A stretch of 63,970 nt of DNA, filler included, from Bipalium vagum (lineage: Eukaryota), in the NCBI GenBank assembly GCA_037834085.1. It is 3 parts of 3 records of this genome, joined end to end, with 100 filler letters (N's around TTAATTAATTAA, not from the genome) between each part and the next. Parts side by side here need not be neighbours in the genome. Positions count along the whole stretch, not along the records: positions 41,105 to 63,970 come from JBBMKC010215582.1; 2 more parts are not named here. One strand, given 5' to 3'. The first letter of the stretch is position 1. Every line of letters begins with the position of its first letter. A program made the position numbers and the translations under genes. Under the pieces are notes generated by a model, which was given only the letters and a program-made list of their open reading frames with translations, did no database searches and was not told where the DNA came from. Of the stretch, positions 837 to 63,800 are shown piece by piece.

Positions 837-2097
837 CACAGCTGGACAAAAAAATGAGACTTTAACAAAATATAAAATTTTTAAAAAGATGTTTAAATTG
901 GTTAACATTTATTACATTTTTAATATTTAAGCTATTGCACGTAATATGTATGTAATTTGGTGTTTTTTTTTCTATTTGTTTTAATAATTCCAGTTATAAA
1001 TAAAATGACAGACACATTTAAATGTCAAAATAAAAAATCGGATATGTGGCCTTTGTTACACAAAACTGTTATATTCTGAAATGCAGACTATTTTGAAAAA
1101 ACATGGTATTCAAATTCCAATTTCCAAAATACAAAGAATTGGCTACCAGTTCAAGACAACAGGTTCTGTAAAAAGAAAACCAGGCTCAAACAGACCCAGA
1201 AAAACTACAAGTCGAGATAACAATAGACTGAAAATTGAGGTCATTAAAGATCGTAAGAAAACTATTACAAAATTAGCTGAGGAATTCAAAAATGGAAATA
1301 ATGAAACAGTTTCTCGAAAAAAAATTGCAAGACGAGTCAAAGAATTGGTGTTTGCGTATATGAGTTGCGCAAGGAAACCATTTTATTCAAAAAAAGAATA
1401 TTAGAGACAGATTAAATTTTTATAATCTTTACGGTATGTATGACTCTCAGTGGTTCCAATATGTGTTCTGGAGTAATGAATGTCAATTTGAACTTCATAG
1501 TGATGCCCCTGAACGCTGTCTTCGAAGATCATCTGAAAAATATGTAATGGAGTGTATTCCCACCTCAAAAAAACATGGCACTGCGATAATTATGGTTTGG
1601 GGAATATTTTCAACATCTGGAGTTGGTGAGCTTATACAATGTACTGGGTCAATTAATGCCAAAGTGTACCAAAGGATATTAGATATTGGCTTGCTTCCAA
1701 GCATCGAGAAGTTATGCACGGAAAATGAAAGACAATATATTTTTTTCCAACTGGACAATCACCAGATTAAGATAATCCCATTGAGAATATATGGGAATAC
1801 ATAAAGGCAAACTAGTCGGGAAATTTTTCAATACTCCTGACCACCTGTGGAAAGCAGTCGAGAAAGAATGGAAAATCATTAGTACAGAACACTGTCAGAG
1901 ACTATCATATAGCCTACCCAAACGGCTCAAGTTGCTTAAATTGGCCAAAAGGAAATATATCCCTTATTAATATTTTTTATTTAGTTAATGATATATTGTT
2001 TGAAAATTTTTATAAAATTGTTGTAAAATTGTTAAAATAAATTTTGTCATAATATATGATATAAATATGTAAGCATCATTTTTTTTATCCAGGTGTG
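837..2097 (+). mobile_element. Tc1-family (DD34E) DNA transposon, near full length, transposase disrupted
   Basis: Imperfect TIRs (cacagctggacaaaaaaatga at 837; catcattttttttatccaggtgtg ending 2097, followed by TA). ORFs 1081-1404 (HTH, GSNRPRKTT) and 1436-1804 (FWSNECQF, IMVWGIF), then an NPIENIW motif in another frame. Stops and frameshifts present. Confidence 0.9.
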
Positions 2098-12852: not shown

Positions 12853-13370
12853 CGAGGGACCCAAAAAAGCAGAGTTTTTAATAAACCATATATTTTTATA
12901 CTTGAAAAATATTATTTATATAATCACTGAATGTTAACAAATCATTATTAAACCAATTATAATTATTAAGCAAATTCATTATATCTTGTTTAAATCTACT
13001 AATCTAAAGGGAAACAATCAACATGGAATCTTCGTGTAGAAGAATAATCACCCCCTTTCTAGCAGCAAAATTAAATCATGTCTATCCCACGATATTCTTC
13101 TGACATGAACATGATTGATTTCTTTATATTTCAGAATTATGAGTTAAAGAGAAAAATGAAAATTTTCGAATCCGTGCAGAAAAAAACTGTTCCCAGAACA
13201 GTTCTTGGAAGACCAGATAACGTGCACCCTATCTCATGAGCCGAACCGATCTGAATAGCATCATTTTGCTTAATAGTGACTATTTAAAGTGAATATTGGT
13301 CATAAAACGTTGGAGTAAATGTCCGATTTCTGGAATATATTTTTTTAAAAGTTTTGTTTTGGTCCCTTAC
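12853..13370 (-). mobile_element. Possible short mariner deletion derivative
   Basis: Weak inverted ends (cgagggacccaaaaaa / ttttggtcccttac) and an SGLPRTV (GRP-like) motif on the minus strand. Confidence 0.3.
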
Positions 13371-13791
13371 ATAATAATTATTTTTGAGATTATCATTATA
13401 TTATTAAATATTTTTTTGATAATACATTCCAAGTAAATACTTTATATTATGAAAAAAGTATCAATCACATAATTACTTTAATTTAATTGGCTGACTCATT
13501 CTGCATTTTAATGTGTGAACTAAATATTTAGGTTACAAGTACCATGTATAGGTTTTTTTATATTTTTCACACTTACATTTTAATATTTCAAACTTTAAGT
13601 ATTAAAATGAAATTTCTATCTTTTATGATTTTAATTTATGTTAATTAAAGTAGACAAATTATAGCCCGAAAAATATTCATATACCACAGTAAGAACTGAA
13701 ATGTGAAAAACATCAATCAATAAAATTTTGAGTAAAAGCTTAATACTTTTAATTGATGAGAAATAAGAACATTATTTGATTTAAATAAAAT

Positions 13792-22700: not shown

Positions 22701-24110
22701 AATTCTACGGTTGGAGACAGATTACTTCGATTTTTATCAATTGAAAACCATATGGATACTCAGACAATAGAAGAAAGAATGGAAACTATTCTCAAGGCCT
22801 TAAAATATGGTCCGAAGAGAAAAGGAAAAGAGATCTATTATATTTTTTTAGATGGAATTGACGAAATGTCTTACGACCATAGCTTACAATGGATTCCGGA
22901 CTGTACCTCAGCTACAATTGTTATGGTAATCAGTAGCCTAATTGATCCTGATAAAGATTCATTCTACTCTCTTTTAACAAATTCCCAAAAATGTATAAAT
23001 GAATTCTCAATAGAATCTATGGAAAGACATGAATTACTCAGTATGGTTAACGATTATCTTGACAGTTTTGGAAAGAGGCTAGATTCCGATCAAATAAGTA
23101 AACTGATGAGTTTTAAAAACTCTAACAATCCACTTTGGCTGATTTCAGCTTGTGAAGAGCTTAGGATCCATGGTGACTATTCCACATTGACGAAACTCAT
23201 CCTATCTTTGCCTCCTACTATAGCCGAGTTAAATGAGATGATTATTAAACGATTATTAAGACAGGATTCGAAGAATATTTTGAGAACATTTCTTCAATTA
23301 CTTGTGATTTCTAAGTCTGGTTTATGGGAGAGCTTAGTAAAAGATATGTTGGCCACAAGATTAAATTATCCCGAGACGGTAAGTCATTGTCTGTGGATTG
23401 ATGTTAAATGGCAATTTAAAGGGTTTTTACTATTTGAGGCTCAATGTCTACCACTCATCAAATTACGGCATAGAGTAATAAAAGAATCTATTGAAAAAGA
23501 ACTGTCCATGGGCAACAAATTTCAAATATCCCTGCATAAAGAAATGGCTTTATTTTATGAAAAGCACTTAAATAATTCAAGTCATATGTTTCTTCCAGAT
23601 TACATATATCATCTTGTCAAATCCAATTCTCGCAACCAATTGATAAGGTTCATGAGAACTAGAAGGTCATGGGAAATATTTAGACAATCATATATTCGTG
23701 GAATGATAATGTTAAGTATGCGCTGTAATAATAAAACTATTCACTGTTCCTCAAAAAAAGAAGACGAGTTGGTCATGTGCAATTTTTGTGCCCATAAGTC
23801 TGGAGAGTTATCCATCCATACATCGAACAGGAATTGTTGTTTTTTCTGCGGAAATGTGATTTTCAACAATAACATAAAAACAAAATTATTTTCCTGTCAG
23901 TTTCATAAGCAATTGTCTTGTCAAAAGAAATGCAGTTTATGTGAAGGGGTGACATCGAGTTTGGGAAGAGTGAAACTTCAAGTCTGTCAATTGTGTCAAG
24001 TCGGCAATGAATTTGGAAAGTGTGGAGTTCTCGTTAAAGAAGAAGACATTCTGTTTGATCAACAATTGGAATTCAGTAAAGCTGTTTATAAAATTGAAAA
24101 CTTTATCTAA
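13792..24110 (+). CDS. DUF4062 + STAND/NACHT NTPase (TEP1/NPHP3/NWD-like) with C-terminal Cys-rich zinc module; 3 exons, 838 aa
   Basis: Exons 13792-13829, 14781-15191 and 22043-24110 join at GT-AG sites with matching phase 2/2 into one 2517-nt ORF. DUF4062 signature IRIFISSTFRDFHNERNLL...ECDLRWGI...GDRFGW, then SVTLMEI. Walker A GQAGMGKST (about 22584), Walker B YYIFLDGIDE, NPLWL motif. Exon 1 is the least certain. Confidence 0.88.
19800..20307 (+). mobile_element. mariner 3' half, in intron 2 of the STAND gene
   Basis: LLLDNARPHIA and HPS*SPDLSPTD motifs; TIR-like end aaaactttctgaacagcctaa followed by TA. Confidence 0.85.
20628..21910 (+). mobile_element. DD37D (maT-like) Tc1/mariner element, full length but disrupted, intronic
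   Basis: TA-flanked TIRs cagggtgaccagaaaa / ttttctggtcaccctg. Motifs GSGRKRT, FSDERLFTIE, VMVWGGV, FQQDSTPAH and PPYAPDTNPMHYSIW. Stops and frameshifts present. Confidence 0.9.
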
Positions 24111-42474: not shown

Positions 42475-45400
42475 TCACAAAACCGATATTTTATCTTGTT
42501 TCGAGCTTCTATACCGTTTCGAATGGTTTGGACGCTTCCGTTTTTCTTTTCTCCATTCCAGGAACTCTGTGTCTCGAAGCAGAGCCGTATTTTCTTCATT
42601 GACATTGGTTTCTGATGAGCTGCTGTCTAGCTCCGACAATTTTGACTGGATTGAACCCGGGAAATATTGATGTATCGAGTTTGGAAATCGGTGAAAATGA
42701 CCACGGACCCACTTGTAAAGAGTAGTATAGAGATTGGGAAATTTCAGGTCGATATAGTCCGCTAACCCACTCGGGTTACTGTTGAATAGGGTTTTTGATA
42801 GATCTATAGGCAGTTCGTGAAAATGGTTTCTTTTGTTTCTGAGCGCTCTAGCAAGATTTGACAGGTTCTTTGACTGCTCGACAGAAGACAGATAGAAAAA
42901 TCAATAACACCAATGCAAATGATGAGATTTTACAAACGCCAACCTTGTAACTCCTCTGGACTGTGAGATTCTCAATCAGCTCCGGTTCCAAATCATCTGT
43001 CCACTTGTCGGGAAATACGTCATTGCTTCTTTTGTCCAAAGAAGTCTGCAAAGTTGGATTGTTTTTCTCTATGAAATCTGAGACGTCCTGAAAACCAAAA
43101 AGAAAAATAAACCAATAAACAATCTCCTAAGCCAAAAAAATAACATAAATATTAATAATCAATAATTTTTTTTGCTATTTTTGTCAAATATCAACAAATC
43201 TATTGATCATTTCTGCGTGTATGATAACCTCGCGAATAATTTATTGATTCTCCTTCCACAGATATTCAACAAAAAAATTAATACAAAAGACTAATTAGTT
43301 CATGGATTTTTTTTTCGGTAACGGTATAAAGAAACTCATAGGACATTGGTAAAATGTTGTAGATGCCAATGGTGCATATTTTGATTCATAAAATTTTTTA
43401 TAATGACTTATCGACTTTTGATTTGTGATACGAAAAAGAAACAACACTTCCCCCAAACTAATATTTTATTCTTTTCACAACAAAATCTTAATTATGAACT
43501 TCATAAATGATAAAAAGAAAATTTGATTTTTTTTGCTTTCAAAACTTTTGAGATCACATTTCTCCAACCAAGTATTACTTAGATTTTTTTCAAATAAAAT
43601 AACAGAATTTATTTCGTAAAGATATTTTCATTTGTTAAAAACTGATCATAATAAAAAATATTAATTATTATTATTATTATCAAAAATTAAATTATAAATA
43701 TCATAATTAAAATGGTTGTAAAAAATTTCCAAAATAATTATTGAAATTTTTATATTTTTATTTCAATATAAAAAATAATTTTTGAATTTATTACGTTGAA
43801 TATGTTTTAAATAAATAAATTTTAAAATAAAATAAATTTTAAAAAGTTTAAATCATTGGTCAAGAAAATTTTTTTTTCGATTTTAATATTTTTTCGTATT
43901 TAATTAACTGTTTTATTAATTACTTATTTGTTGATATTCAATTTTTTAATATTTTAAACACAATGATCAATAAAGTTTTAGATCTGAAACATCTATGAAA
44001 TTTGACTTCTGTACATAAAAAAGTAAAACTTCTCTAAATCCACTCTATAATCGAAACACGGCACTTTGGGAAAAAGCAATATTATGCACTCTCAATAAAT
44101 AACAGAAAAATTAGACAAGATTTAATTTAAGTTACTTTTCATTACTTGAAAATAAAAAAAGTTACTTAAATAAATATTGATAAAAAACTTAGATTAAATC
44201 TTAACCTAAAAATTATTCGGATGAAAAATACCTGAAAGATAAAAAATTTTAAAATCAATATTTTGTTTTAAACAATCAATAAATATATTACATACAAATC
44301 TTAAGAACTATAAAAGAATTTTGAACTTCAAATTGAGACACTAATGAATGGAAAAAAATAAAAATGAGGCCCTATTGGTGAAATATTATAATTATGTATT
44401 ATAAATTACAAGATAATTTATAATAACATTTTTATAAAATGATCAATACAATTTTGAAAAATTGAGTTAAGAATTAAAATAATATAGATTCTAAAAATCG
44501 ATTTTAAATGTATTAATTAATTTTTTTCTACGATAATTTCATTAAATAATTATAATCAAACAAATTCAAAGTGAAACATTCTGTTTTATAAAAATCGTTG
44601 AAATACTAAAAAATCATTTTATTGAGATAAGGATAAAATCAACGTTCAGCTTTCAGTAGATAAATAGAATACTTACACAGAGAAATGACAACTTCTTCAA
44701 AGATTCCCAAAATAAAGGACCACAAAGAATTTCTTCTGCACAAGGTCTCTTACTCGGAGATGATTCAAGCATCATGGAGATGAAATACATGACCATGTAG
44801 TCTGTAGACCATATCAATTATTTTTATTATAATAAATCGCTGACAATGTTAAAATAATAATAAAATATTTCAAAAGTTCAATATTATTTATCTGAACACT
44901 TAAGATTATTGCTTCTACTTCAGAGCTAACACAAAATAAAAAATGAATAACATTTTGAAAAAATATTTTTTAAACAATTTTTTAACATAAATCGATAATA
45001 ATTTCTTTGAAATATTAATGAACAAATTTTTGCTGAATATTTATTAGCATAAATTTGAAACAATGAACTAAATCTGCTTCATGTGTAGTTTTTATATGGG
45101 TTAAATAATTACCATAAATTTGAAAACATGGTGTTGTATAATGTACAAAATATGACGAAAATGAGATTTTCACAATTATTGTTCGATTTCAGTATTTTTT
45201 TACTTCAAAATTTACTCGAAATAACGTTTTAAAATATTTGCATATTCTCTATAGCAGAAAGATAGCACCAGTTTCTTAAAAATAATCTTAAAAGAAAATT
45301 GATTTCAGCCAGTTTTTTTAAATATATTATGCAATCAGAAGTAAGAAATCACATTTTTATTAATACCTACCGGTTTGGAATACATAAAAGTAAGTCTTAA

Positions 45401-46439
45401 ATAATTTATTAATTGATAAATATGCACAATATTTAAATACATTTCATCAAACCATGGGGTTTTAATATATAAGCAATTTTTAAAAATACAGTTAAATCTA
45501 AATTATATGCTGAACATTATTAATTTACTAAATTTATTCTTTTAAGTTATTAAATTAAATTCCATAATAAATTAATCAGAACAATAAAGTAACTAACAAA
45601 ATACTTAAAAATTTTTTATAAGCAGGCATTAATTTTCTAAAACCAAGATATTATAAGTATTGAGTTGTTCCATTTTATATAGCGTTTTATATTTAAAATT
45701 CCACAACCTGTACCTTATTGGTTAATAAATATATATAGACAGTCAATAGTAAATATATTTGAAAATAATCTTATAAATAGTTAAAAATTCCCGTTATCTG
45801 ATCAGCCTCTTTATAATCATTATTATTTATTATTGATGTAATTTATATAAATAACTTAATGAATAATAAAATATACATTGTTGAACAAATGTTTTGACAA
45901 ATTAAAATAAAAATAGTGTTTATTTTATAAATAATCACTACCCATTAAAAAAGTTCGTTGTAAAATATATTTTCATAATTGCTATAATTTTAGGAGTTGA
46001 AAATAAATTTTATTAGAGAAATAAAAAATTCAAATAATTTTAATGGTTAATTTATTTTCTTCAGAAAAAAAAATTAAATTTCAAATAAGAAAAGAATTAC
46101 CAGTGATAAGACCGTGGTCGAGATGGTAATTTCCCTCACGAATTCTATGTTGTCGAGACAAGATGTCACTACCAAAAGGATGGTGTCCGTCGGTAAATAC
46201 GTAGTAAAACAAAATTCCACACGAAAATATGTCGCTACTTTTGCTCTATCATTTGAAAATGACAATAGACAATCAATGTTTTATATAATCAAACGTACAA
46301 TTCGTGTCACATCATCTCGACCAAGTTCCGGAGCCATATAACCCGATGTACCTCCACAGCCGGTTTTGGTGATTGAATTTCCACTATCTACGCTTTGGCG
46401 ACTCAGACCAAAATCGGTAATTATTATCTTGTATTGAAA

Positions 46440-46514
<75 letters not shown>

Positions 46515-49500
46515 TCTTAAAGGAAGTCGCAGCTGGACCTTATTTTTTCTCATAATAAGAACGTTTTTTGGCTTTAAATCGCGATGGACTGAAAAATTTT
46601 CTCTTTATTTTCGTATTAATATAAAAACGAATTTCATACCAATTCCTCTATCATGAAGATAATGAACGCCAACAACTATCTGTTTGCATATACTGAGCTT
46701 ATCCATGACACAAACCTCTTTAAGCTTAACACCAGAAACATACTCTTCCAGTGTACATTCACAGAGTTCCAAAGCAAGAAATGTAAATTCCCTTGACTGA
46801 GTCTAGAAAATGTTGTTTTCATTACTGTTACTATAATATATTATAATATCTCGAAAATTGAAAACAATTGTCACTCTACACATTTTCTATATTATTTTAC
46901 AAATAAAATTATTTATTATAAATATTTATTGACTTTTCAATCAATACTTCAAGTGATCATTAGTAATTTGACTGGGTTTAATAATAATCGTAATAATTAT
47001 ATATTAAAATAATTATATCCAAATAAGTTCTTGTAGATTTTATTAAATTGATATTTCATTAAATAGTTAACGAATTATTCCTCAGAAAATCAATTTGTTT
47101 TATTTGATTACTTTAAATGAAGCATATAATTTAAAATTTAAAATATCATTAATTCATATTTAAATTTTTTTAATAGTCAAAATTGCGGACAGAAATTTAA
47201 TCATTCGTTTTTGCTTACTTTATAAATTTAAGCCTGGATCATATGCCCTAGAAGCCAGTTGAAAATTTTACTCGGCATTTGGAGAAGTTGTAATAAAGAA
47301 AAGAACTGGTCGTTTTTGGTTCGAGAAGTTTCGTTCAAATGATGAAAATCTGTAAGACCCGTTAACATGACCAATGATGACTTGAGAAAAACAATCGAGT
47401 TATATTCAATTCAAACGTGTAAGGAGCTTGGTTTGATATTTAATGTCAACAAAGAAACAACCAGATTAGAAAGAGATAGTTAATAAGCAAGTTGGTCCCA
47501 CATGACTTAACGACAGAGAATGGATCTCTTCTCATCTTAATCTTAGTCATCTAAAAGTAAAGCCACATGGAACACTGATATCCGATTAAAGGTAAGTAAT
47601 GTATTCTAAACCAAAGACAACACATCATTGACTATCTCCTACGGATCCATTACAATAAGTGCTTATTGCTGGACATTGCACAAAAAGCTTTTACTGTGTT
47701 TGATGGACTTATGAGGGAAACAATCATTGAGTTCATAAAACCGAAAGAAACAATAACCGCTGACATATATTAGAAAAATTATTAGAGAAATAGCAGGCGT
47801 TAGTGAACAGAAATAAAGTTCTATTTCTTCAAGACAATGCTCGACCGCATGTTGCAAAAAAATAATGATCAAGATAACACAACTTGGTTGAGAGATCATG
47901 TCATCCACCATATTCCACTAATGTCTCGTCAACAGTTTATTTTTTTATTTGAAGGGAAAGAAGTTCACAAATGAAATGGATCTAAAAAAAGAAGCGCCAA
48001 TTTCTTCTTCAGTAAGAAAAAAGTTTTTTATGAAAATAGAATTACCAAGTTGCAAAACCATTTGGATAAACAATGAGATGGATCATATTTAATGAATAAA
48101 TATATCTAAAATTAGAAATATTGACTTTTTTTTTAAAAAAAAACTCAGCATTAAATATTTGGATACCATAACAATAACAACTCAAATTCAACAAAAATGA
48201 AAATTTTCAACATAAATATTTCAATATATTGAAAAACAAAATGAAACAAACCAGTCTATGTTTAAATATCAATAATTCAATTAAGCGATTTTTCACTGAG
48301 CATTTTATTTACTTTCTGGACATAAACTTTATAAAGTCTTAAAACATTGGTTTCGTGATATTTTTAGGCTGCTTATTTATTACCACATATTTTCAATTTT
48401 TAAATTAATCATTTTCATTCGTTATGAAATGTTAATAAACAAAAATAAAAAATCAAATCACTTTAGAATCAATTATTTAGCACAAAATAATAATAATAAT
48501 AATAATAATTAGTATTAATAATAATAATGAATGAAAATTGTTTTATTGTTTAAATCGTTTTCAATCATTAGAATAGTCTGTTACGACAGAATATATTTAC
48601 ATTTCTTATATGAAACTTGATCATAGCAGAACTATACAATTGTTTTCATAACAAGATTGATATTATCAAAACAAATGACATCATTTCCTTTCGGAAGACT
48701 TTCGATCTAGGAAATGTATCTAAAATACAAATATCGAATAGTTTACAATAGGAAAATGATCGATTATGTAAATGTGCACTTCGAAAATGAAAAGCAAATA
48801 TTATTCAAAAAGATATTTATATAACTACTTTACACTAGAAAATAACACAACAGTCTTGAGGAACCTATTAACATGAATTTTTTCAATGTGAATCGATCAT
48901 TAAACAATTTCGATCTCGAAACAATTTCTTCAACACTGACAGAAATCAAAATCTTTAAATTGAAGAATTTATCGATTGATTTCATACTAAAAACAGTTAT
49001 TTGTGGGTTTTATAGTGATTTTTTATAATTTACTAGAAAATTTTTTTAAGTCATTCAAAAACACTTTTATTGATCTCCTTTAATAGCCATTGACAATAAT
49101 AAAGATTGAGTCAATAATTTTTAAAGAAACGAAGTTATTAAATTGATTTTTAATTTATTTATTTATAAGTTTATTATTATTATTATTATATATATATTAT
49201 TTATTTATTATCATTGAATATTATTATTCTATTGTTTTACAGTATAGTATACTTTATTTATTATTAATACTATAATTATTATTTCTCACTGAATATTTTC
49301 AACCTAATTCATAAGTTTATAATGAAAAAATCAAAGGACTATCAAAATTGATGAACGTACAATATAGAAGCACTTGATCAAATTACTGCAATCAAATGAC
49401 TGACGTAGAAATTTGAGTTCGTGTTGAATAAGATCACTTTTCAACAATCTTTTAACGGCTACCGGTTGATCGTTGCTAAGAAAAACTCCTCTGAAAGATA

Positions 49501-51708
49501 AATAATTAATAGAAATAAAATTAATGTTATTTTTAACACAAATAACCAATCAATAGTTGAAGCTAAAATATGAAAAATATCATGAAAAATAATAACAATA
49601 AATATTATTATCATCAATAATAAGGAAAAGATAAATAAAAATACAAAAGATAAATACTCTTACTGATAAACAATCGTTCCGTTTGTGCCATAACCCAGAA
49701 CCTTATCTGGATAGTAACGCAGATCAGAAATTACGATCTCATCATTATCCTTTTGATATTTGATGTCACAAGAATTGTAATTGTCGTTTTTTGGCGTATT
49801 TTTATTTTGGTGATCTTGTTGACTCTTTAGAAACTTCTGAAAAAGTAAGGTCTAATTTAATGATATAAACAACAATTAAATATTAATCAGTTTTCCATTG
49901 CAAATCAATTTCAATTTTTTTCTAATTTTAATATTAATCAATAATGATCAATAAGAAAATTTAATAATGACAATTAATCAATAATATAAATAGTAATAAA
50001 TAATAAACAATAATATTAAATTATAATCCTTAAAATTACCGATAAATATCAATGGAACCTCACCTGTTTTGTAATGAGATATGTTATGTAAGTGACCATT
50101 ACAAACGTTGCGAAAACAAATATGCCTAATATCTTAATCTGGATTGAATCACCTTGTATAAATGACGATTGCTGATATGAATAAAGCTTATCATTCTCTT
50201 TGGAAATTAGAGATGTGTTGAATCTGAAATGAAAAATTAATTAAGCTGTTGGCTTAAGGTTGTATTATGAAAATGGAAAGTCATTACTATTAATAATTAC
50301 GAAAACCTGAAAACGGTTCCGGATTAATATATTATTCATGATACATCATTATTATTACAATCAGAATTTTAATTATAATTTTCCAATGTAAATCGACAAA
50401 TTTAAATAATGGAAAAATTAATTTGCACGCCGGTTTTCTTTTCACTTTAATGTAAGAAATATTTTAATTCTTAATCGATTAATTCAATATCGATAAAAAT
50501 AAAAACAATTACAATCGATATAATAGTTCATGAATAACAATTATGAATATAACAAAAAGCTAACGGAAATAAAATAATAATAATAAATCAATTTATTTTT
50601 GGTTATTTGAATGAAATGTATATTTATTCTTATTATAGATATTCACTTGAAAAACCCATTATAACAAAGTAAAAAAATTGTTTATTTAGTTATTTCAAAA
50701 TAATTAACGTAGAAATAAATTCCATGTTTGAAGAACATTCATTATTTTTTATAGATTTAATAGAAAAGCACCTGCTAAACCCGCACTTCTGCCTTACAAG
50801 TGTCGATAATAATTTGAAATTATGGTATGAGAAAAAAATTACAATCAATAAATTTTCAAAAATTTTTCAAGTAACAATAATTAAACTATTAACAGAAGTA
50901 TTACAATAATTTTAAAAAAATAATTCATAATAATATTTAATAATAATTATTAATAATAGAAATTTTAAAATATTTTTAAAAATTCAAAATAATAATCAAT
51001 AACAAATAGTAAAAATCAATTGAACTACTAACTGGATTCTATCGAAATCTAAAAGATAGTTCGATATGACAACTCTGTTATGGTTGTTAATAAACTTTTC
51101 AGGTGGGATTTCATAAAAACCTTTAATTAGTTTATTGTTGTTACTTAAATCTTGGTTTTTTATCGATCCGTTCACCGGTCCAGCTATCAATGGCAAATGT
51201 TGACGAGAATTTGTTTTAATTTTATTATCCTGGTGAATGAATGTCTTGAGCACGTACCAGCTGTTTGTTGCCTGACCAAAAAAAACTGCTTTCCTTTAAA
51301 AAATAATTAAACCAATTGCAGTATAAACCACATGGGAACATATTGAAATATAAATCGGAAATATTTTTTAATCAAACTATCAGGGAGAAAAATATTTATA
51401 TCAAATAAAATAATGTAAAGTAAAGATATTTCAATAAAAAAAATTTCAAATAATCAATATTTGTTTAAATTTGAGCAGTTATGACATTAATAAAAATTTA
51501 ATGTTAAATATTTACCGAAATCCATTCAAATAATTTCAGAGTAAATAACCCTGTTGTATTTCAAACAATAAATGATTAAAATTAAAATCCTAAGCGAAGA
51601 AAAATCATTTAATTTAACAGAGTAATAAAATCAAATTAATATCTTAAGTTAATATTAGAAATGTATAGGAAAAATGGAAATAAATTGTAAATTATTAAAA
51701 TGTTGCTG

Positions 51709-51746
<38 letters not shown>

Positions 51747-54700
51747 TCAATAAAATATAAGGATAGTTTTATAACATCAATTTTTTTATATTTGAATTTA
51801 AGTAACTTATCATCTATTTTCTCAAAATTAAAAAAAAATTCTTATTTGACAAATAGAAAATAATAATAAAATCAAGATTTAATTTAAATTTTGAAAATAA
51901 AAATGATACAAGACAAGGAAAATTGATTTTAATTACTATATCAAATTTAATAAAAAAATCTTCATCTGTAATATTCTTCTATTATCTTTCACTTAAGATA
52001 TAGTGAAAGAAAAACTAACTCCACCTCTCAGTTATCGATGCATTTTTGGTTACTATTAGCAACAAGACATGTATTTGTTTAAAATAATGCTCTTTTCATG
52101 TTTAATTTTGTTTTTCCATTAATACTTTTCTTTGTAATTCTTTAAATTCTAACAAACTTTAATGAACGTCGATATTCCTGTAATAGTTTCATTTTTCTAA
52201 GTGTCAATCATTGATATAACAGAAAAGGACTACTTCAAACCAAAATATAAAATAAGAACTCTCAAAAGAATTATTGAAAAAATTGGCAAACCCAAAAATT
52301 TCAATAGAATCTTATAAAAACACTAAAGTCAATGAAATAATTCAATTATAAACAATATTTAAATATATATACTATTTTGTTATACAGGGTGTTTCATAAA
52401 TATGTATCCGCGTTTAAAGAAAAAATAATCAACTAATTTTCAACCGTCTTTTTGTACAAAAACTATGCAAATAAAAATTGGCTATCAACCAATTTAATTA
52501 ATAATATATTGAAATAGTTTTCATTCCTTGGACATCCATACATTTTTGTAATCTTGGCAATACAGATCTGAAAACTTTCTGACAAAGATCTACTGGAATC
52601 AGACTGATTTCTCCAAAAAGTTTTCCAGATATTTATAAAATATTTATACTTTTCCAGTGATTTATCTTCAATAGTACATGGTGTCCCAAAAGTCAGTGGT
52701 AATTTGAATGTTTTATAATTTTTTGAAAATTTGATTTAATTGAAATTTCTTGACATTTATATGATAATCGATCTTTAAAGTTTTATTAAGACTTAAAAGA
52801 TTTCAGGTAAAATGAGTTTTTGTATATAAAAAATGATTCCTGTTCATTGAAAAATTCTTATTGTTTAAACGGGTTTTTTTAAACACCCTGTATGTTTAGT
52901 CAATTTAAAATCTATATGTTTATAAAAAATCATAAATCAAATATCACCAAAAATATAAATCAATATGTAACTAATTGATTTAAAGTTTTAAAAAATTAAT
53001 TAAAATTGCGAAATACCATTGCGACATGAAGTTCAATAAAAATCTATAAATAAAAAAACGATAATTAAAATTTCTTAGATATTGAATTATTATTGAAATT
53101 TTTTTCGAGTTTCTTCGAAATGTTGCTTTACAAAAAATAAATAATATAAATATATGTTCACTAAAATTTGAAAAAAGTTAAAAATCAATGTAAGACAATC
53201 TTAAATGATGAAGTATGCCAGGCTGTCCAATATATCTTTAGGTATACAGAAATAAAATGAAAAATCAATATTTTATATATTTTTAAATAGTTCAATACTA
53301 TTGAATTTCGTAAAAAAATCTTTATAAACAAGATAATCAATAGAAAAAAAAATATTATAGAATATTACTTTAAGGAAACTTGGTTGTGATTCCAAACAGA
53401 TTTATTGAAGAACAGATACAAAAGCGTCTGGTGCGACATGGACGTAAATTGGACTCGGCTGAGAATGCCCTGAGAAGTGATCTCATATAATCCCGTAACC
53501 GACGAGTCCAGTGTGGTCGACCAGCCGGTTTCAATGTCTGATCAGAATCACGATTTTAATGGAATATCGATCAAAAAGTGTACAGTTAACAAACCGTTCG
53601 TTTTGAACTTGGTAACAACCAGGCCCGAATCACTGGACACGTAGTGGCGCATATCTGCAATGGAAAATCAATGAGAGGATATGAAGAAATCAAAAACTCT
53701 GAATTCAGGCTTTCTTTTAATCTAATTTTTAATCGACTCACCGTATTCGTCCAAATCAGTAGCGGCGTGAGTTGTCAGAGAATTGAGGAAAACGTTGTAT
53801 CTGAAAATGAATTTTTTTCATTAACAAAAAATTAATTCTAAACATTCGCAACTAATTAACCTGTAAAAGAAGCACGAAATGTTACTAGTTTATCAATATA
53901 TTTAATTAGTTCATGGTGGTTTCCGTTACAGAAAGGATAAGAAACAATGTGGTCAGTTCAGTTACTTTCGGTAGTTTATAAGAATTGATTGAAAAACGAA
54001 ATGATAAAAGAGAAACAGTAAAGAATTGAGAAAGCAAACAGAAATAGCAGGATGTGATTATACTGATTTTAGAGAAAAATATCCGAAATGTTTCATTAAG
54101 AAGAAAGAAGATTTAAGCCAACCCTTAACACGTTTTTGTTGGTTAGTATTTTTGTCTAAAAAAATAATAAGGATAGATTTTAAATGAAAATTTTATTAGA
54201 ACATTTAAAATTGAATTCTTGCTAACGAATTCAAACTTTTTACACAGAAATCTCAAAGCATTTTGATATAATGAACACTGACGAAAGTGTCAAATTTTAA
54301 TGGGAAAACCAGTGAGCGAAAGAATTTAAAAAGATCGTCTCAAATATGAGAAGGAAAACTTTCAATCCAGAGATTAGTGAAAACTTTATTTCGATGATAA
54401 CGAATGTGATATTTCTTATTCATCTTTTTCCAAAGAAAAGATCCAAGGTGGTTGTCACAAATACCACTTTACTGATTAAATGGATTTTTTGGTTCAATTT
54501 ATTGTAGTCTTCGTTACAAAAATAATAAGACTTGATATTTCAACTTCTTGACAATACATCTAATTGATTTTTTATTGATTAGAAATAATCAATAAAAGAT
54601 GTTACATCAGAGAATTTTGGAAAGCCCTAAGAACGAAGTTCGCAACATTATTTTAATAACTCATATTAAGATAGTTTCAGACTATAAAAGGGGAATAGTT

Positions 54701-56614
54701 TTAAATATTTCGTTATTGATTTTTCCGTTAATTTCCAAGGCAATGTAGTAAATGAAAGAAGCTTTGACAACATAAAATCCAGAGAAATAGTGAGGATCAA
54801 TGGAAAGCATAAAGGAAATTCGAACAAAATAGTTAAAATTTACTTGAAATAACAAAAATAATGAGTTATTTCATTTTCCATAGACGAGTTTCACATATAA
54901 AAATGCAAAGATTGTGCGATACGAAGGTGTACCTTCGTTTTAAAAGATCATTCTCCATCATTATCAACAAGGATTGTTTTTTTTTACAATGAACTTCTCT
55001 GAAAACATGTAGCTTAGATTATCAACAACAAAACCAAACGATAACGTAACTGTTTTCAACAATCCGGATCAACAGACACTGAAATTGAATCCATTAACCG
55101 ATCAACTGCAAATACACGACCCACCACAATGACACATGGTAATGTGTTTTATTTGATTTTCTTATTAGAGATTGATTATTTTTCTGAGATATGGCCAATT
55201 ATCAACAATAAAGTAATTATTTATTTATACCAACGGTTCTCGACCTTTTCAAAAATATTACATTTTTCCTAATCATAAACATGCAACCCCTATGGTTTTG
55301 AAATTGAATTTCATGTTTTTATAACAAGATCCAGATCACTGTCACTACTAATTTCGAGGTAGCGCTTCAGGTTGCTGGACTCTATTAACTCCTTGGATAG
55401 AACTACATCATAAATGATATACTGGTTTCACATTCACATTCTTGTGAAAAAGAAGTTTAGAAATGCCTCATTTTAACTTGTTTCAGTGATGTCGATGATA
55501 TCATGGAGCAGAAATATATTTGAGAAAGAGGAAGAAGTCAAGATTCCAACAAAAGAAAATTTTGAAGTTTTAATAAATGTGGGGAAAACTGAAATAACAA
55601 CATAGTTTTCAATTTTTGCGGAGGAAAAAACATTGGAGAGCGGTGACACTGTAAAGAGAACAGAATTTCTCTAAAAATAAAGTGAAAATGATAATCATAA
55701 AGACTATTATTTGTGAATGGAAAACTCTCCTCTAGCGTTTAACATTAAACAATATGTATATTATACCTATTTTTTCCATTCTTTCTGGGATCTAAGAAAA
55801 TACAACCTCCTAATCACAGGTTGGAACCATTGATTTAGATGATGTCCATATATTTCACAAAGACATGAATTTATTGTCATATTTCGAATAAATTCATAAC
55901 TTTGATACCCTCCAGGAAGAAAAACAACAACCTATAATCTTATGGTATTTACACTATTTAACCGTTTTTTCTCGAAGTATTAATGTTATTACAAGAATTG
56001 AATATTAAATAATATAAACTTACATTATTTGTCTGCTAGTGGGTTCACTCACTACAAGATTGTATTGGCAAATCCCAATGAATATCGTTCGATTTAACTG
56101 AATATTGTGATTGCTCTGAGGACAATTGTCATTGTTACCCGTTTGATATTTGTGTAGAACTTCACCGGTTTCGATATCTATTGACAGCCATTGGTCGCTT
56201 TTGCTACCAGTTAATAATAGGTTATCTAGAAATAACGGAGTCTTTTTAACATAATCCATCAAACTATATTCCAGGGGTGAAAACACATTTCCAGTTATTT
56301 GATGATGAAATATGTACAGTTTTCCGTTGATTGGATTTGGAATTAATATTGAGCCATTAGTAGTTGTTGTTTTGATCACAGGTGATAATTTAGTTGACCA
56401 CTTTAATTCACCAGTATATCGATCTAATAAGTGAATATTTCCATTTATTGTTGATGCAAATAATAAATTATCATGTGAATCCTGAAAATATTAGTATTAG
56501 TATTAGAAGAACCTGTAACGAAATACAAACATCGGAAATTTTCAAAACTTCGTTTTCACAACTACAAAATAAGCACAATATATGAAAGATAAAGACTGAA
56601 ACATGTATAATCAT
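42475..56614 (-). CDS. IRE1: IRE1 serine/threonine kinase / endoribonuclease (UPR sensor); 15 exons, 939 aa
   Basis: Phase-consistent GT-AG exons: 56614-56531, 56481-56024, 53800-53742, 53654-53595, 53537-53369, 51293-51033, 50223-50064, 49836-49664, 49490-49361, 46802-46640, 46588-46299, 46245-46101, 44801-44677, 43087-42944, 42873-42475 (2820 nt). Signal peptide MIIHVSVFIFHILCLFCSC. Luminal domain LLFASTINGNIHLLDRYTGELKW and LIPNPINGKLY. TM ILGIFVFATFVMVTYITYLI. Kinase LGYGTNGT, VAVKR, ALELC, HRDLKPKN, DFG, APE, DIFSCGILFYYVFTDGHHPFG. KEN RNase RSYK...LARALRNKRNHFHELP. Confidence 0.95.
43200..43462 (+). mobile_element. mariner 3' fragment in an IRE1 intron
   Basis: GIKKLIGHW*NVVDANGAYFD followed by a TIR-like end. 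Confidence 0.65.
46440..46514 (-). repeat. Coding (AAT)25 microsatellite = poly-Asn in the IRE1 kinase domain
   Basis: In-frame within exon 46588-46299, between HRDLKPKN and the DFG motif. Confidence 0.9.
47010..48170 (+). mobile_element. mariner element in an IRE1 intron, decayed
   Basis: IRFCLLYKFKPG, WVPHDL, QDNARPHVA and HPPYS motifs. Confidence 0.85.
52385..52890. mobile_element. Non-autonomous Tc1/mariner (MITE-like) element in an IRE1 intron
   Basis: TA-flanked inverted ends cagggtgttt / aaacaccctg; about 500 bp; no intact ORF. Confidence 0.7.
53860..55750 (-). mobile_element. Possible highly decayed piggyBac-like element in IRE1 intron 2
   Basis: Fragmentary DYNK...DQ-like motif near 54500 and a coding-like composition. 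No clear TIR pair. Confidence 0.25.
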
Positions 56615-57483
56615 ATTTAAATTGTATATTTAAATAATTATACTTTTAACACACAATACAATTAGCATAAAACTTTCAAATTTACAGCGAATATATTAAA
56701 TTAAATTTAATTGTTTGAAATATTAAAACAAAACCTTATTAATGATAAGTAATTATCAAATTAATTTATCCAAAAAAAATTTTTCAAAACAATAATGCCC
56801 CATGGACAATTATTTCAAGTTTTAGAGTAGTAGAAAATGCTTAAATCATAAGAAATTGTTATTTTTGATTGCTCAAAACTCTTATGTTAATGCTTTTCCG
56901 GAATATGAGATATTAATAAATTTACCGAGATTTTATAATATTGTAAACTTATAGTCGCTGATAAATTATAAATTAATTATTTATTCAAACTTAAGTCATA
57001 ATTAAAAAAATATTCTATAATAACTAAATTGACAATCTTTGAAAATCTATAAACGTAATTACACACAAGTTAAAATTATTTATAACTTTCAAAGTTTCTC
57101 AAAGATACATCTTTGAAAACCCTTATTCCATGTTCTTAATACAAAATGAGTATATAGATAATATGAAAATAAATTCGCAAAACCATTTTTATTAAATATT
57201 AAGTATTTATAAGAGTGATTTTGGTATTTAAACATATAATTCAAAAATTCATAATTTATTTCTAATCAACTTTATTAAATAAAAAAATAATTTCCATCTG
57301 AATCAACAATTTTTTGCGATATGTTAACAAGTTATTTATACCAGTTCAAAATAACGATGGTTCAAAAATCACTTCTTGTCCATTAGGTAAATTGGTAGCT
57401 AATAGACATATCTGTTCGTGGCGGGCGGGTATAATAGCTTGATCCAGCACAATGGCTACATGATCAGCATTTTTACAACTTTT

Positions 57484-57819
57484 TTAGTGTATAAATTTTA
57501 ATTGTTGAGTTACAAAATCAAGGATAAATCCGCGAATTTTTGATAAAATATCCACGCTAATTATACACTCGAGTTCATTATTTTCCATTAACTTCAATAT
57601 ATGATCTATATCGTGACCCATTATTCTAATAATACTTCTGCATGTTCCTAATAAAGGTACTAATTTGCCATCTACTCCTATTACTGATATCGGTGATGTG
57701 TTTACTGCAGCTTGCTCCTCTGCGTTTAAAAATCGAGCGTCAATGAGAGATGTCTGTGCTCTAGTATATACTAGAGCCAGAACTCTATGTTTATTTACTT
57801 TGATCGTAATCATGGGTCG
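57484..57819 (-). pseudogene. Retroviral-type aspartic protease 2 (catalytic motif decayed)
   Basis: RPMITIKVNKHRVLALVYTRAQTSLI...VIGVDG...IISVDIL. YTR differs from DTG by single-base changes (TAT vs GAT, AGA vs GGA). Followed by IIPARHE, typical of the PR-RT linker. Confidence 0.8.
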
Positions 57820-57987
57820 GGTTTCGTTGGTTATGAATGAATTTCTTACGTAATTCACACTAGGTGGTGGTGAATTATTGTCGTTTCTATTTACAGGGTG
57901 ATAATTAAAATCGGAAAATATGTCTATTTGATCAAATAATGAGAGGACTTGTTGCATACTGATTGTGGCATTATATTCGGCTACGGC

Positions 57988-58617
57988 TAGTAGAGTTATA
58001 TTTTCTGTTAATTGCTTGTCTCGAGCCATGTCTAACGCAGTTTGACCGTATATATTTCGGTGAAATAAGTTTACATCAGGCCTTTTAAGCAATATTTTAA
58101 TTATTTCTGTATTTACTTCATGACGGCTTGCAAGATGAAGGGGTGTTTCATCGTTTAAATATTCTCTCTCGTTTACGTCTGCCATAATTTCATTGTCGTA
58201 TCCTCTGAGTTCAATCATTAACTTTACTGCTTCTACAAAATTTGATGACACCGCTAAATGTAGGGATGTTTGAATGTTGTTTCGATATCCTTAGAACATT
58301 TGGGGTAAGTGTTTGCATTGGATTTGTACCATTAAGTATCGCAAGGCATCTATATTGGTGGCCTCTAAAGCATGGTCTATAATTGATTTGCCTGCTTTGT
58401 CCCAGTGATCTATTTTACATCCACTCCCAACTAATTTGATTTTTACATTTAATGAAATATCACATGCAGGTGTTACTAGAAGTGGTGTATGTCCAAAAGT
58501 ATTTTCGAAATTGAGAACCAATCTAAAATTATTTTTTATAATTTAGATTATTTCAAGTGCTCCTGCTGAGTTTCCTTTCAAAATTGCGTTGTGTAATATG
58601 GTATCACCGTACTTATC
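57988..58617 (-). pseudogene. Six ankyrin repeats (IkB/Cactus-like) inside the retroelement polyprotein
   Basis: GDTILHNAI, GHTPLLV, GKSIIDHA, QTSLHLAV, ETPLHLAS and GQTALDMA. Same reading frame as both proteases; two point stops. Confidence 0.85.
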
Positions 58618-58984
58618 AGGAACTGTGAATAAAGCAGATATCTTTCTAGCCATTTCGTTGAAGGTTTCTTCCTTTGTTAAGCCCATTGCAAAATAATGAG
58701 CTATTTTGGACATGTCAGTAAAGAATTGTCTTAGAGCATTTGTGTGCATATTTGAGTTTACTGTGGCGGGCATAGGTGTAACTATCATGACGGGTTTTTC
58801 TATCTGTTGATTAGACTCGTTTAAGGTATTGTTTTCGTTTGTGCGGTTTTCTTCTGCCATTTCCTCTATTGTTTCTTCTCTAATGCCAAGTACCTCCTCA
58901 AATGATTGAATTGAAGATGCACCACTAGATGAAGACCTTTCACTATCGGATTCTTGAGGATTTTCTGTATACATTTTATTTGTT

Positions 58985-59292
58985 CTTAAATTTAGTACCA
59001 AATTGGGAATCCTTTTTAATAAGTCCATGCCTACTACACAACTACTGGAATTTGAGTCAATTAATTATATGGTATGTTCTAATACTTGGTTTAGGAGGTG
59101 TATTGTACAATTTAATGTACCTGTGAGACAATATGGGGTATTTCCTACTTCGTATGCTACCGTAGGGTTATATTCGAGACGCTCTTCCTCTTGTTCTGTT
59201 AAAATTTCCTTGTGTAAGCATCACGTTTGTGAACCCGTATCAATTAATTCTAACATTATATGCTCATTTATCTTCATGACTACATATGGCCT
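58985..59292 (-). pseudogene. Retroviral-type aspartic protease 1
   Basis: RPYVVMKINEHIMLELIDTGSQT*...CVVGMDLL; intact DTG; two in-frame stops. Confidence 0.85.
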
Positions 59293-59739
59293 TTGGTCTC
59301 TTTCTAATCCATCCATCATCATGTATGATGTACGTTGAGGTATTCCTAAACGAAACATAACATCATTTTCTTGAATGGACTTTCGAATTGTTGTTAGTTC
59401 AGATTGGGGATATACAGTTGATCGGTTTGGCAATCTATCTAGGCTGTTGGTTTGGTGTGTCTGAAATTCTATTGTTTAAATTACAGGGGGTGTTTTTGTT
59501 TTCTTGGAAATACTAGTTTTAAATTTATTGTAAACTTGTGAGGTGGTACTATAGACGTCTTTTGGTTCCTCTATATCCTAATTAGGCCAGTAATCTTTGG
59601 GTTCTGTGATTGCGGGCTTTGACAATGTTGATCCATTGTCATCATGGCTATTATTATGCTTCCTATGGTGATGATGCCGGTGCTTTGAAGTTCTGGTAAT
59701 GGGTTTGTATCTATAATGGCATTATTTCCTCAATAAATC

Positions 59740-61520
59740 AATGTCTTTTCGATGTCTTTTGTGCAATTCTCGATTGGCTGTTGGTGAACATATGGCTATA
59801 ATTAATTTCCATGAGCATCCTAGTGCGTGATGTAAACTGCGGCCTGACATAAAGCTGCTACCGATTCCTCTTAGTATTTGGAAAATGAAGTATATACCTG
59901 AAAATCCGGCAACCCATGTGCCAAATGTATTAAAACCTCCTCAAATATACGTGATGACATTTTTTGCTGCATGTATGTAATGGTCTGCTCCGAATAATAG
60001 GTTGTAATCCATTTTCCTTTACCGGGCATTATAAATTTTCGTGATCATTTCTATTATACTTCTCTTTTGTGCCTGAGGAAAGAGTATTACTTTCCTGGCC
60101 TGATCAATGTCTTCGGGAGAATATATTCCTCCTTCATTAATAGAAGACAATGGTGTAAACTCAACCATATTTTGTCTCTATTGTTTGTACTTTTTCTCTT
60201 GGCGGTTTCCTCTCCGGTAAGGCTATCCATTGTTCACCGATCTTATATAAAGGGGATATAATGGGACCACACATGGCTATTTGAGGCTGTACATTTACTT
60301 CTAGTATTATTATAGTTAATGGGGATACAAACCTTAACATCTTTTGATAAATAATAGGTAAGTCACTAGTACATTCGTTAAATTTTCCTAACGGGACATT
60401 TACTTTCTCGTACTTGTACTTGTACAAGGCTTCGCCCATTTTTCGACTGAAAACGCCATCCTGTACTAATAAGGGTGATGTCAATTCGGGATTATTAATG
60501 GCTAAAAGTAACCGATTTTTTAATATTTCACGTCCTAATTTGCAGTCATTTAAAATAGTCTCTTGATATACGTCTTTTAATTGTTCCTGTAAATCGTGAT
60601 GTAGATAGACTATTTTATTATTTAAATACATATTTAGCTTGATATCTGAGCTATCTTTTATACTCTATCCTTAGTGACGTTTCAATATAATAATAATAAC
60701 CTTTATAATTGGTTTCAAATACTGCTACTCCACACTTTACTACTTGTTTCTTAATAATCAATTGGATTATTTCCTTTTTATCCGTTGTTATTAGAACAGT
60801 AGGTGTTTTTGCTTCATCTATGGCAGAACTGCGTCTAGGAGCTGTTCGGTAATTTTCTGGAATTTTTGTGTATTCATTTTGGGTGTAGTTAAGTCGTACA
60901 TCAGTTATTTCTTGAAATTTTGTCAATTTCAGACTTCTCAGGTTACAATGATCTTTATTATTGTCATATAATAGTGTTGCTTCTTTTGTAACATAATATC
61001 CTTTTTACAAATTACAACTGGGTTTCGATAATAGTTGTCCGGTAATGACATCGAATACACCTTCATACATAAGTAGTTCAACTTGATAGTCCTCTATATC
61101 TACATATATCGTTTACATCTTGTCCAGACATCTTTTTCTGTTCTCCTTCGCATTTCCCATTATAATCTATTGATCCCCTTGTAACTATTTGTCTTGTTAT
61201 TGTATTTTCCTTTACCACAATGGCTATTTTGTCATCTATTCTAATTTTATTGAATTGAAAATCATTTTCACATGTTTCGGCTGTTACACGTACTTCTCGG
61301 GGTAATAATTTAGCGGATATTATTGAGTTATGATACGTAATTTCTTGCACCATAGTTTTTGTGGTAGCTACGTTTCGTATGGTTAAATTATCGGGGTATT
61401 TGTAATATATGGTGAAAATCGTTTCTACCTCTGACCATTCTCTCTCTATTTTTTGTAATAACTGAAGCTCTATAGGGGAATTACTCTATGAAATCGTAAG
61501 AAATGTTTCACCTCTTCAAT
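59740..61520 (-). pseudogene. Chuvirus-like envelope glycoprotein (env)
   Basis: Colinear motifs IELQLLQK; GSIDYNGKCEG; YLNNKIVY; CKLGREILKNRLLLA; MGEALY; CTSDLPI; FVSPLT; GGIYSPEDID...ILFP; TM region FGTWVAGFSGIYFIFQILRGIG...LHHALGCSWKLIIAI. These match my recollection of Jingchuvirales G proteins and their retroelement-borne copies. Confidence 0.75.
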
Positions 61521-63185
61521 GTGAATTTCCCGGTTATCCATTGTTGTGCTATTTCGTTAGCATTTCTTACCTCTATTGCTTTATCTGAAATAATAGTGAT
61601 GTGGTTAGATGCCTCTTGTTGAGGTTCGCCTAATCTCTCTACATTCGCATACTTCTCTCTTAATAATGATTCTAGTCTATCAATGTGTGACATGCTTGCT
61701 TCAAGTGTATTATTTATTTCCTTATTATCGTTTACAATATTTATTTTAGGTGTTAGTGCGGGACAACTTCTCTGTAAGTGTCCAAATTTTCCACAAATAA
61801 AACATTTTGTCTTTCCCTCAACATTTACTTGTTGACGTTGGGGTGAGTTGAAATTTATGCTCTGTGGCTGATTAAAATTTATACCTTGAGGTGGGTTAAA
61901 ATTTATACTTCCACACACGTCTTTTACGTGTCCTCTTTTTCCACATTGTAAGCATAATAAATTTTACGCTCTGCATTCATTGGCATTATGATTTTGTCGT
62001 GCACATTTAGTATATTGCTTATTAGCATTATTAATTTCTAATTATTTACTCCCGATACTATTATTATATTCAAATGATTTTCCGTAATTATTATTGTACT
62101 CTAATGGTTTATTATTATATTCAAATGATTTGCTTGCAAAATTATTTCCATTATTATAATTATTTCTATTTGTATATTGATTTACTGGGGTTCTCATTTG
62201 GTTTCGTTGGTTACCTCCATCTAAAACATTATAAGGCTTAGTGGAGTATTCATTTTTTTTGTCATTGGGACATTCTCGGGCTCCATGACCCATTTCATTA
62301 CATTTATAACGTTGTATTTGATTATTACTATTATTTGTTTTAATGGGAGATTTTGGCCTTAATCCGGGGGACTGCGGACTTTTACTTATTACATTTATTG
62401 TTTTCATTTCTACTGCCGTTTTTGCTAATTTTGCCTTTTTTATTAATTGTTCAAACACTTCATCTCTATATAGCATAATAGCTGCTTTGATTTCATATCT
62501 TAAACCTGACCACCATTGGTCTTTTACTATAACTTTGGTATTTTCGTCCCACTTATCTTGTAAACCGAAAGCTCTTTGGGCTACGGTTCTTAAATTATGT
62601 GTATATTCGGATACTGTTTCGTTTAATTTCTGTTTTAAACTATAAAATTGTTGCCTAAATAAATGGCCTGTGTCACCTGTGAAAATTTGTTCTTCTAATG
62701 CTGCTTTTACTGATGCCCAATTGTCATCTTTTCCTTTAGCTACTATATCTAAATAGGCGTCTCTTGCTCTACCTTTTAAATAAGTGGGGAGTCTGTTCAT
62801 CATTACGTTTTCGTTAAAACCATATGCGCGCATTATTATATAATAGTTTGATAGAAGATCAGGTAATTCGGCTGGGTTTCCGCTATAGGTATCCATCTTA
62901 ATATAACCAGTATACGTACTCTATTGTCTTCATGCTCACTTTCGGTCATTTTATTTAATTTATTTTTATTACTTTTTTCTGTAAAATTCGGGCGAGTTTG
63001 AAAACGAGTGATGATAGGTTTTTCAACAATTAAACTTTGCTTTTTGGACTTTTTAACTTTTACTTTTTTAACTTGGCTATCGGATTCGAAATTAACAGTT
63101 GTTACGTTTAGAAAATTATTATTATCTTCAGAATCAAAATTATTATTATTATCAATATGTTTTTGGCCACACCAATAATTTCCAT
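61508..63185 (-). pseudogene. Retrotransposon Gag with four CCHC zinc knuckles
   Basis: Capsid-like LPTYLKGRARDAY...W...LKQKLNETVSEY...GLRYEI. Knuckles (R)YKCNEMGHGAREC, (Y)TKCARQNHNANEC, CLQCGKRGHVKDVC and CFICGKFGHLQRSC. ORFs starting 62896 and 61918 share one frame. Confidence 0.9.
61838..61909 (-). repeat. Three 24-nt tandem repeats in gag, encoding (S/G)INFNxPQ
   Basis: SINFNPPQ GINFNQPQ SINFNSPQ. Confidence 0.85.
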
Positions 63186-63259
63186 AACATGATAGATTTA
63201 TAATTCTATAAGTACTTTGATCCAGTCTTTATTTAACTACCTGAAAGAATATGTTGAAG

Positions 63260-63800
63260 TACATGTTTCCAATCAAAACTTTCCAAAGCATTATATTTTT
63301 AAATGCAGAAAAGGCGATTTTTTTAAGAACATCACTTTTTAAGTAATTTTGAATACAAATCTAAAACATCCGTAAAACATTTTTTTTATATTTAAAAGGA
63401 CCAAACACATCTTAAAAAACAGTCAACCTCATGAACAATTAAGATACTCAAAATACGTATCTTATATTCATACCTTTTTTAATCACCTCTTGGACCCCTC
63501 TTGGTATGCTTTCATAAGGATTTTTAATCTTAGATGCTGAAATCATTGCCCACTGCTCCCCCGAATTCTTCCACAGTGCCTCAATATTTTCCGGCCTATA
63601 CATAGCAACTCTGGATTTCAGATCAGCCCAGAACGACTCAATTATATTCAGATCTGTTAATTAAGCGGGCTAATCACTCAGTAAGCTTAACTTGGAATTT
63701 TTCAAAGTCACCAATCTTGATTTGTGACATGGAGCTCTAGTTGAAATATATTCTGTGCCTCATATAGTCCTCCTCAAGTTTATTGAACACTTGACATTTT
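63260..63800 (-). mobile_element. Tc1 (DD34E) 3' half
   Basis: APCHKS, DLNIIESFWADLK and NPYESIPRGVQEVIK motifs. It abuts the 5' end of the retroelement gag. Confidence 0.8.

Follow-up and report, generated by a model that had tools for sequence, protein, structure and literature searches.

How does the ectodomain of a chuvirus-like glycoprotein enter the endoplasmic reticulum (ER) if its gene follows gag directly and no hydrophobic leader precedes it? A first-pass annotation raised this question for a locus of Bipalium vagum (GCA_037834085.1), within a stretch of 63,970 nucleotides, filler included, that joins three parts of the genome assembly and is called the window here. Our answer, held with good confidence, is that the window copy is a broken and truncated gypsy-type retroelement carrying a gB/chuvirus-type fusion gene between gag and protease, that in its intact relatives gag, env, and protease are encoded as a single long protein whose internal hydrophobic stretch is the likely ER signal, and that the window copy probably lost this signal by deletion.

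Anatomy and decay of the element

The window consists of AT-rich animal sequence with spliced genes. An IRE1-like host gene lies at 42475-56490 on the minus strand, with a luminal propeller exon (56020-56490), a kinase exon carrying a poly-Asn insert (46281-46604), and an RNase exon (42475-42900); the retroelement lies about 900 bases upstream of the propeller exon. A TEP1-like DUF4062-NACHT gene at 14737-24110 on the plus strand has a 693-codon exon and a cysteine-rich tail; its nearest matches are at 27 to 28% identity, and in the Atlas it matched bacterial NACHT clusters. Two Tc1/mariner-like transposase fragments were recognized by eye, one at 1009-1804 (plus strand), which has no match, and one at 63448-63660 (minus strand), with a weak DDE_3 match (E 0.09).

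A single element occupies 62900-57350 on the minus strand, with the following features.

61508-62900, minus strand: gag, capsid domain and coiled tail (Pfam PF03732 Retrotrans_gag, E 4.7e-8; PF00098)
61336-61512, minus strand: 59-codon stretch between gag and env homology, likely a gag-side spacer (no cysteine, no hydrophobic core, no match)
61333-61346, no strand assigned: likely deletion junction and onset of env homology (profile match starts at 61335; contig ends from both sides)
59722-61335, minus strand: PF24664 gB/chuvirus-type env remnant in four frame pieces, with a C-terminal membrane segment (Pfam, profile, fold, hydropathy)
59008-59298, minus strand: retropepsin-type protease 1 with a DTG motif (Pfam PF09668/PF13975; tblastn to P0153, E 8e-14)
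57960-58725, minus strand: ankyrin repeats between the two proteases (Pfam Ank_2, E 2e-14; ankyrin region of P0155, 30% identity, E 7e-19)
57349-57864, minus strand: protease 2, with a degenerate catalytic Asp motif, and the start of the protease-RT linker (protease domain at 57484-57864; homology ends near 57350)

The PF03732-type gag, like the gypsy-order pol of the relatives, agrees with the gypsy-like carrier proposed by the annotation. It contains four knuckle-like motifs, two degenerate (62311 and 62014) and two full CCHC (61954 and 61804), is interrupted by in-frame stops at 62044 and 61966, and matches the gag of the relative locus L001 at 25% identity (E 2e-25). The wording reported for its end is accurate: gag closes with ...QQWITG on the minus strand, its reading ending at a stop at 61510, and the next frame reads GETFLTIS*...IELQLLQK. 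Env does not begin there, as had been supposed, since its homology starts at 61335 and the stretch 61512-61336 has neither a cysteine nor an env-profile match. Instead of the one frameshift reported, the copy has four frame changes (near 61515, 61110, 60680, and 60185) and a total of more than 10 in-frame stops, those on the env side being at 61488, 61007, 60021, 59943, and 59724. From the env C terminus through protease 1, the ankyrins, and protease 2, a single frame runs to 57486 with stops and no frame change. The window copy is dead: no envelope protein can come from it.

With ten relatives as tblastn queries, no reverse transcriptase (RT), RNase H, or integrase was found in the window; lacking RT, the copy is placed in its clade by gag, env, and domain order. 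No long terminal repeat (LTR) pair was found in the window, which contains a 3'-truncated copy and extends just 1 kb upstream of gag, and none was seen at L001 either. The single-copy flank resumes at about 57313.

The env remnant belongs to a class III fusion glycoprotein family

Three of the four env pieces match the Pfam family PF24664 (Monjiviricetes fusion glycoprotein) at E 1e-26, 3e-21, and 5e-4, and the fourth has no Pfam match. A profile built from 11 intact relatives places env at 61335-61102, 61121-60693, 60655-60200, and 60174-59641 with 43, 93, 164, and 107 bits, respectively; the onset at 61335 corresponds to profile position 98 of 688. The C-terminal membrane segments noticed earlier were recovered as hydrophobic segments near 59925-59860 and 59826-59776, weaker in hydropathy than those of relatives (1.46 versus 1.75 to 2.46).

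An unbroken window piece of 167 residues was modeled with a pLDDT of 89.5 as a 52-residue helix plus a beta domain. Foldseek returned 23 viral matches to this piece at E <= 0.001, headed by chu-like and related glycoproteins, the matches to chuvirus-like G ranging from E 2e-10 to 1e-5. Against the PDB, herpes gB chains rank first, the best at E 0.034 and none at E <= 0.001, and the model of the intact relative P0004 (pLDDT 82.6) matches herpes gB at E 1e-12. A sequence search of the PDB found herpes gB alone, at E 0.03 to 0.75. The models and the PF24664 match thus indicate that the assignment to the chuvirus-G/herpes-gB class III family holds, as the description of a chuvirus-like glycoprotein had anticipated.

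Intact relatives carry the env inside a polyprotein

A phmmer search against 1.84 billion representatives gave 389 hits, of which 150 were listed. The best 8 of the 389 are long proteins with 38 to 44% identity (E 2e-32 to 1e-25); 6 of them have protease or RT domains, P0008 has a gag-like start, and P0004 has only a weak Bcl-2 match, located before its leader. Pfam analysis of 18 hits revealed protease or RT downstream of env in 10 and gag domains upstream in 2. The order env-proteases-RT-RNase H-integrase lies in one chain in the cluster members P0153 and P0155. At the DNA level, L001 has one open reading frame (ORF) of 3703 codons that encodes knuckles, env, two proteases, RT, RNase H, and integrase. 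The scores of two named chuvirus G proteins are much lower (33% identity, E 2e-14; 28%, E 7e-9). Six pattern matches among viral contigs included no relative, and a word-index protein search returned 1 match among 485 candidates for the central env piece and 0 among 175 for the N-terminal piece.

Several features of these polyproteins deserve mention on their own. The ankyrin module between two retropepsins recurs in P0155, which has at least 6 protease-like motifs, most relatives having 2 to 5. The gag-env spacers of P0007, P0009, P0081, and P0153 share a module of about 150 residues that looks helical and then ubiquitin-like by eye. After the integrase, the same ORF of P0005, P0007, and P0153 continues with a hydrophobic segment, a beta-rich domain, and a membrane segment, possibly a second membrane protein within the polyprotein. 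Downstream of the intact polyprotein of L001, a 462-codon ORF at 12085-13473 (plus strand) with a weak exonuclease (RNase_T) match is perhaps an accessory gene of that element. P0007 is filed at NCBI under a Flavobacteriaceae metagenome-assembled genome and is probably animal DNA in a bacterial bin.

An internal signal is the likely route of the lineage's env into the ER

The mature start of env is marked by an xYDC motif, found in 79 of the 105 proteins of at least 430 residues that were compared. In stand-alone proteins, this motif mostly lies 15 to 50 residues from the first Met with a hydrophobic signal before it, and in polyproteins it lies 149 to 1365 residues in. By a simple hydropathy measure, used for both leader and membrane calls, a hydrophobic core precedes xYDC in all 12 intact relatives tested (9-residue Kyte-Doolittle values of 2.52 to 3.83) and likewise in L001 (3.44). 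In each of the 13 intact relatives tested, the internal hydrophobic signal stands about 20 to 25 residues ahead of the mature start; five clade members that begin inside env are outside this count. Small residues follow the core directly before the mature start, and at the cut-off used a membrane segment occurs about 530 to 555 residues after it in 12 of 13 rows.

An internal signal, cleavage by signal peptidase, and a stop-transfer segment form the polyprotein pattern of the alphavirus/flavivirus type. By analogy, the internal hydrophobic stretch is likely the route by which the env of this lineage enters the ER. Synthesis of the intact polyprotein would begin with Gag in the cytosol and continue there until the internal signal starts translocation; signal peptidase would then cleave immediately ahead of the conserved xYDC motif, folding of the ectodomain would take place in the lumen, and the C-terminal membrane segment would stop transfer, so that protease, RT, RNase H, and integrase would remain cytosolic. 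Among the papers listed by our literature searches, none examines this topology experimentally. The constant spacing between signal and mature start in every intact relative tested offers a testable model in which a single ORF gives rise to Gag, a luminal fusogen, and cytosolic enzymes; the window copy itself is ill suited to addressing it.

The window copy has probably lost its leader by deletion

The window copy does lack a hydrophobic leader, as first noticed: its best 9-residue hydropathy over three frames of 61700-61336 is 1.44, against 2.52 to 3.83 in the 12 intact relatives. No frame of the window gives a match to profile positions 1 to 97, which comprise the leader, xYDC, and four cysteines. 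The copy thus lacks its leader as well as ~65 residues from the start of env, and 4 of the relatives' 14 cysteines are gone. About 156 codons separate the last knuckle from the env homology in the window; in the 5 relatives (of 8) that have a knuckle, 233 to 625 residues separate the last one from the mature start. As no intact copy of the window family was seen, we infer its leader from relatives at about 40% identity. Among the routes of ER entry that the annotation had considered, the internal signal appears to hold for the lineage and the deleted leader for the window copy.

To look at other copies, we used contigs from run X1, which may derive from the same sample as the window, its flank contigs being identical. 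Summed contig depth, which is not a copy number, is 7,000 to 48,000 over 57200-63199 versus 31 to 57 over 53600-56399. Gag, env, and proteases are all highly repeated in this family. For a 451-base junction region, 218 contigs were compared; the listing covers 8 of these pieces and 6 of the 42 loose ends. Two contigs (records 2 and 3) match the upstream stretch as far as 61340 and 61346, beyond which 133 and 69 letters, respectively, do not fit, and six contigs fit the downstream env and end at 61326-61333. None of the contigs listed joins across the proposed deletion. Because contigs from both sides end where env homology begins, a single larger deletion at 61333-61346 in the window copy is suggested, and we rank it above erosion in place.

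Erosion in place would mean that the leader and env N terminus are still present across 61535-61335, altered by small indels and substitutions. Between the gag end and the onset of env homology there are about 60 to 70 codons, roughly as many as the missing mature N terminus would take up. In other copies, 61472-61532 is altered by small indels at several positions; one contig spans 61482-61636 with just 10 gap letters, and tblastn extends the match to L001 as far as 61359 over a gap of 14 codons (E 0.001), an extension that would fit small deletions instead. Dips in contig depth at 61342-61373, 61422-61469, and 61518-61533 carry no weight in this comparison. However, read as an eroded env N terminus, 61512-61336 scored at best -2.6 bits with the env N-terminal profile versus 53 to 124 bits in leave-one-out runs, and a frame-tolerant alignment was no better than 60 of 60 shuffles. 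The main frame of the stretch also has zero cysteines where relatives have four, and the contig ends at 61333-61346 come from both sides. Taken together, this makes erosion in place unlikely. An impression by eye that the same stretch is a ubiquitin-like or helical spacer domain was also rejected (best profile score -1.3 bits, shuffles reaching 9.4); in pairwise comparison with 13 relatives, 10 of 300 shuffles were as good as the best, and it has no Pfam match.

The deletion might also not be confined to one copy. It is quite improbable that a high-copy flatworm gypsy lineage has shed both internal signal and spacer cargo and keeps a leaderless cytosolic env between Gag and tandem proteases with ankyrins; if true, such a lineage would present an envelope in the process of loss or repurposing. 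It is very improbable that the whole family is leaderless, a high-copy lineage that lost ER targeting, spreads intracellularly or non-autonomously, and carries a vestigial env. The high repetition over gag, env, and proteases alike would suit a leaderless family, as would the short gag-side junction that contig records 3 to 5 share, which is common to other copies. Yet contigs that diverge exactly at the onset of env homology indicate that other copies hold sequence missing here, and the leader is kept in all 13 intact relatives. We therefore retain the reading of a deletion in the window copy.

The env groups with retroelement-borne envelopes

For phylogenetic analyses, the window env was read through with X at the breaks. 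A FastTree phylogeny of 96 rows (each covering at least 400 profile positions; P0155 and P0157 dropped as near-duplicates) assigns it, with SH-like support of 100, to a clade of 18 rows made up of envs carried by polyproteins and of fragments, and an IQ-TREE phylogeny of 25 hand-picked rows assigns it to one of 12 rows (100/100), with a branch length of about 0.95 changes per column. In the latter, the named chuvirus G proteins lie across a long branch from the window env clade (100/100). P0065, a G protein fused to DUF5641, a BEL/Pao-type domain, falls on the viral side of the tree, apart from the window. Both trees are unrooted, so they do not fix the direction or date of any virus-to-element transfer. 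As judged from these alignments, the window env groups with a widespread retroelement-borne envelope clade and beside no sampled chuvirus G. The comparison with chuvirus and retroelement G proteins that had been called for thus bore out the class relation and separated chuvirus G from the window env; the independent capture suggested alongside it is not supported, the nearest relatives of the window env being retroelement polyproteins, with which both trees group it at support of 100.

A recent capture of chuvirus G by a gypsy element, or a chuvirus endogenous viral element (EVE) within a gypsy copy, perhaps with a spliced leader, is hardly credible: the PF24664 match, the fold matches to chuvirus-like G, and chuvirus EVEs beside gypsy fragments in arthropods, as reported in PMC10084718, would fit it, but named chuvirus G proteins score far lower and lie beyond the long branch, env and protease share one frame, the identical gene order recurs in many relatives, and both trees appear largely to refute it.

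Comparison with known systems

The annotation had also called the position of the glycoprotein unusual, but the gag-env-pol layout is already published (PMC13524379 and PMC6431247). Arkhipova and Yushenova (2019, PMC6431247, citing Grohme 2018 and Jurka 2007) describe Burro/GYPSM1, giant gypsy-like planarian elements whose env lies in frame after gag and ahead of protease. These elements are described as having a retrotrans_gag with 2 to 3 CCHC knuckles, ankyrin repeats, an env matching mononegavirus-type fusion glycoproteins, a size of >25 kb, and BCL2-like, MATH, BIR, and SUMO-like cargo domains; decayed copies with stops and frameshifts are described for Dugesia japonica. The window copy resembles them in its retrotrans_gag, CCHC knuckles, env in the protease frame, and ankyrins, and a planarian host is likely for it too; its gag-env join is broken by a frame change, its gag-env spacer is short, and it has no BCL2-like, MATH, BIR, or SUMO-like domain. 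Since these cargo domains were not found in the window copy, we name it Burro-like, not Burro. The spacer module and the P0004 Bcl-2 match recall Burro cargo, and neither occurs in the window.

Chary and Hayashi (eLife 2026, PMC13524379) describe GAG-ENV-POL errantiviruses with an HSV/gB-type ENV from Platyhelminthes, Nematoda, and Bryozoa; in intact members, the ectodomain lies between a signal/membrane segment and a membrane segment at the C terminus. The window shares the gag-env-protease order on one strand and the gB-type env, and the relatives have the full order; of the two bounding segments, the C-terminal one is present in the window, and the N-terminal one is absent here but present in 13 of 13 intact relatives. 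Smed errantivirus 4 is identical to the window env at 19 of 64 residues in one stretch (hand count from supplement 2 of PMC13524379), near the 31 to 64% mutual identity of six Schmidtea elements in the rows shown there. The window copy differs in being defective, without RT, integrase, or LTRs, and in its two proteases with ankyrins, absent from the main text of that paper (0 matches for "ankyrin").

Other systems share the glycoprotein and differ in its setting. Anakin, a BEL/Pao element with chuvirus G in mosquitoes (Dezordi 2020, PMC7642597), has the same glycoprotein family, whereas the window carrier has a Ty3/gypsy-type gag. The G proteins of Wufeng shrew chuvirus 2 and Fushun oxya chinensis chuvirus 1 and herpesvirus gB share the PF24664 family and class III fold; chuvirus G is, however, a stand-alone protein of about 660 residues with an N-terminal signal, 28 to 33% identity to the window env, and a clade of its own. 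Unlike a chuvirus-derived solo glycoprotein EVE, the window env is not nested among chuvirus G proteins and shares a frame with protease. On domain order and homology, the window copy is best described as a defective Burro-like copy of the GAG-ENV-POL type, with formal family membership dependent on RT, and it adds one more defective example of an envelope within a gypsy polyprotein.
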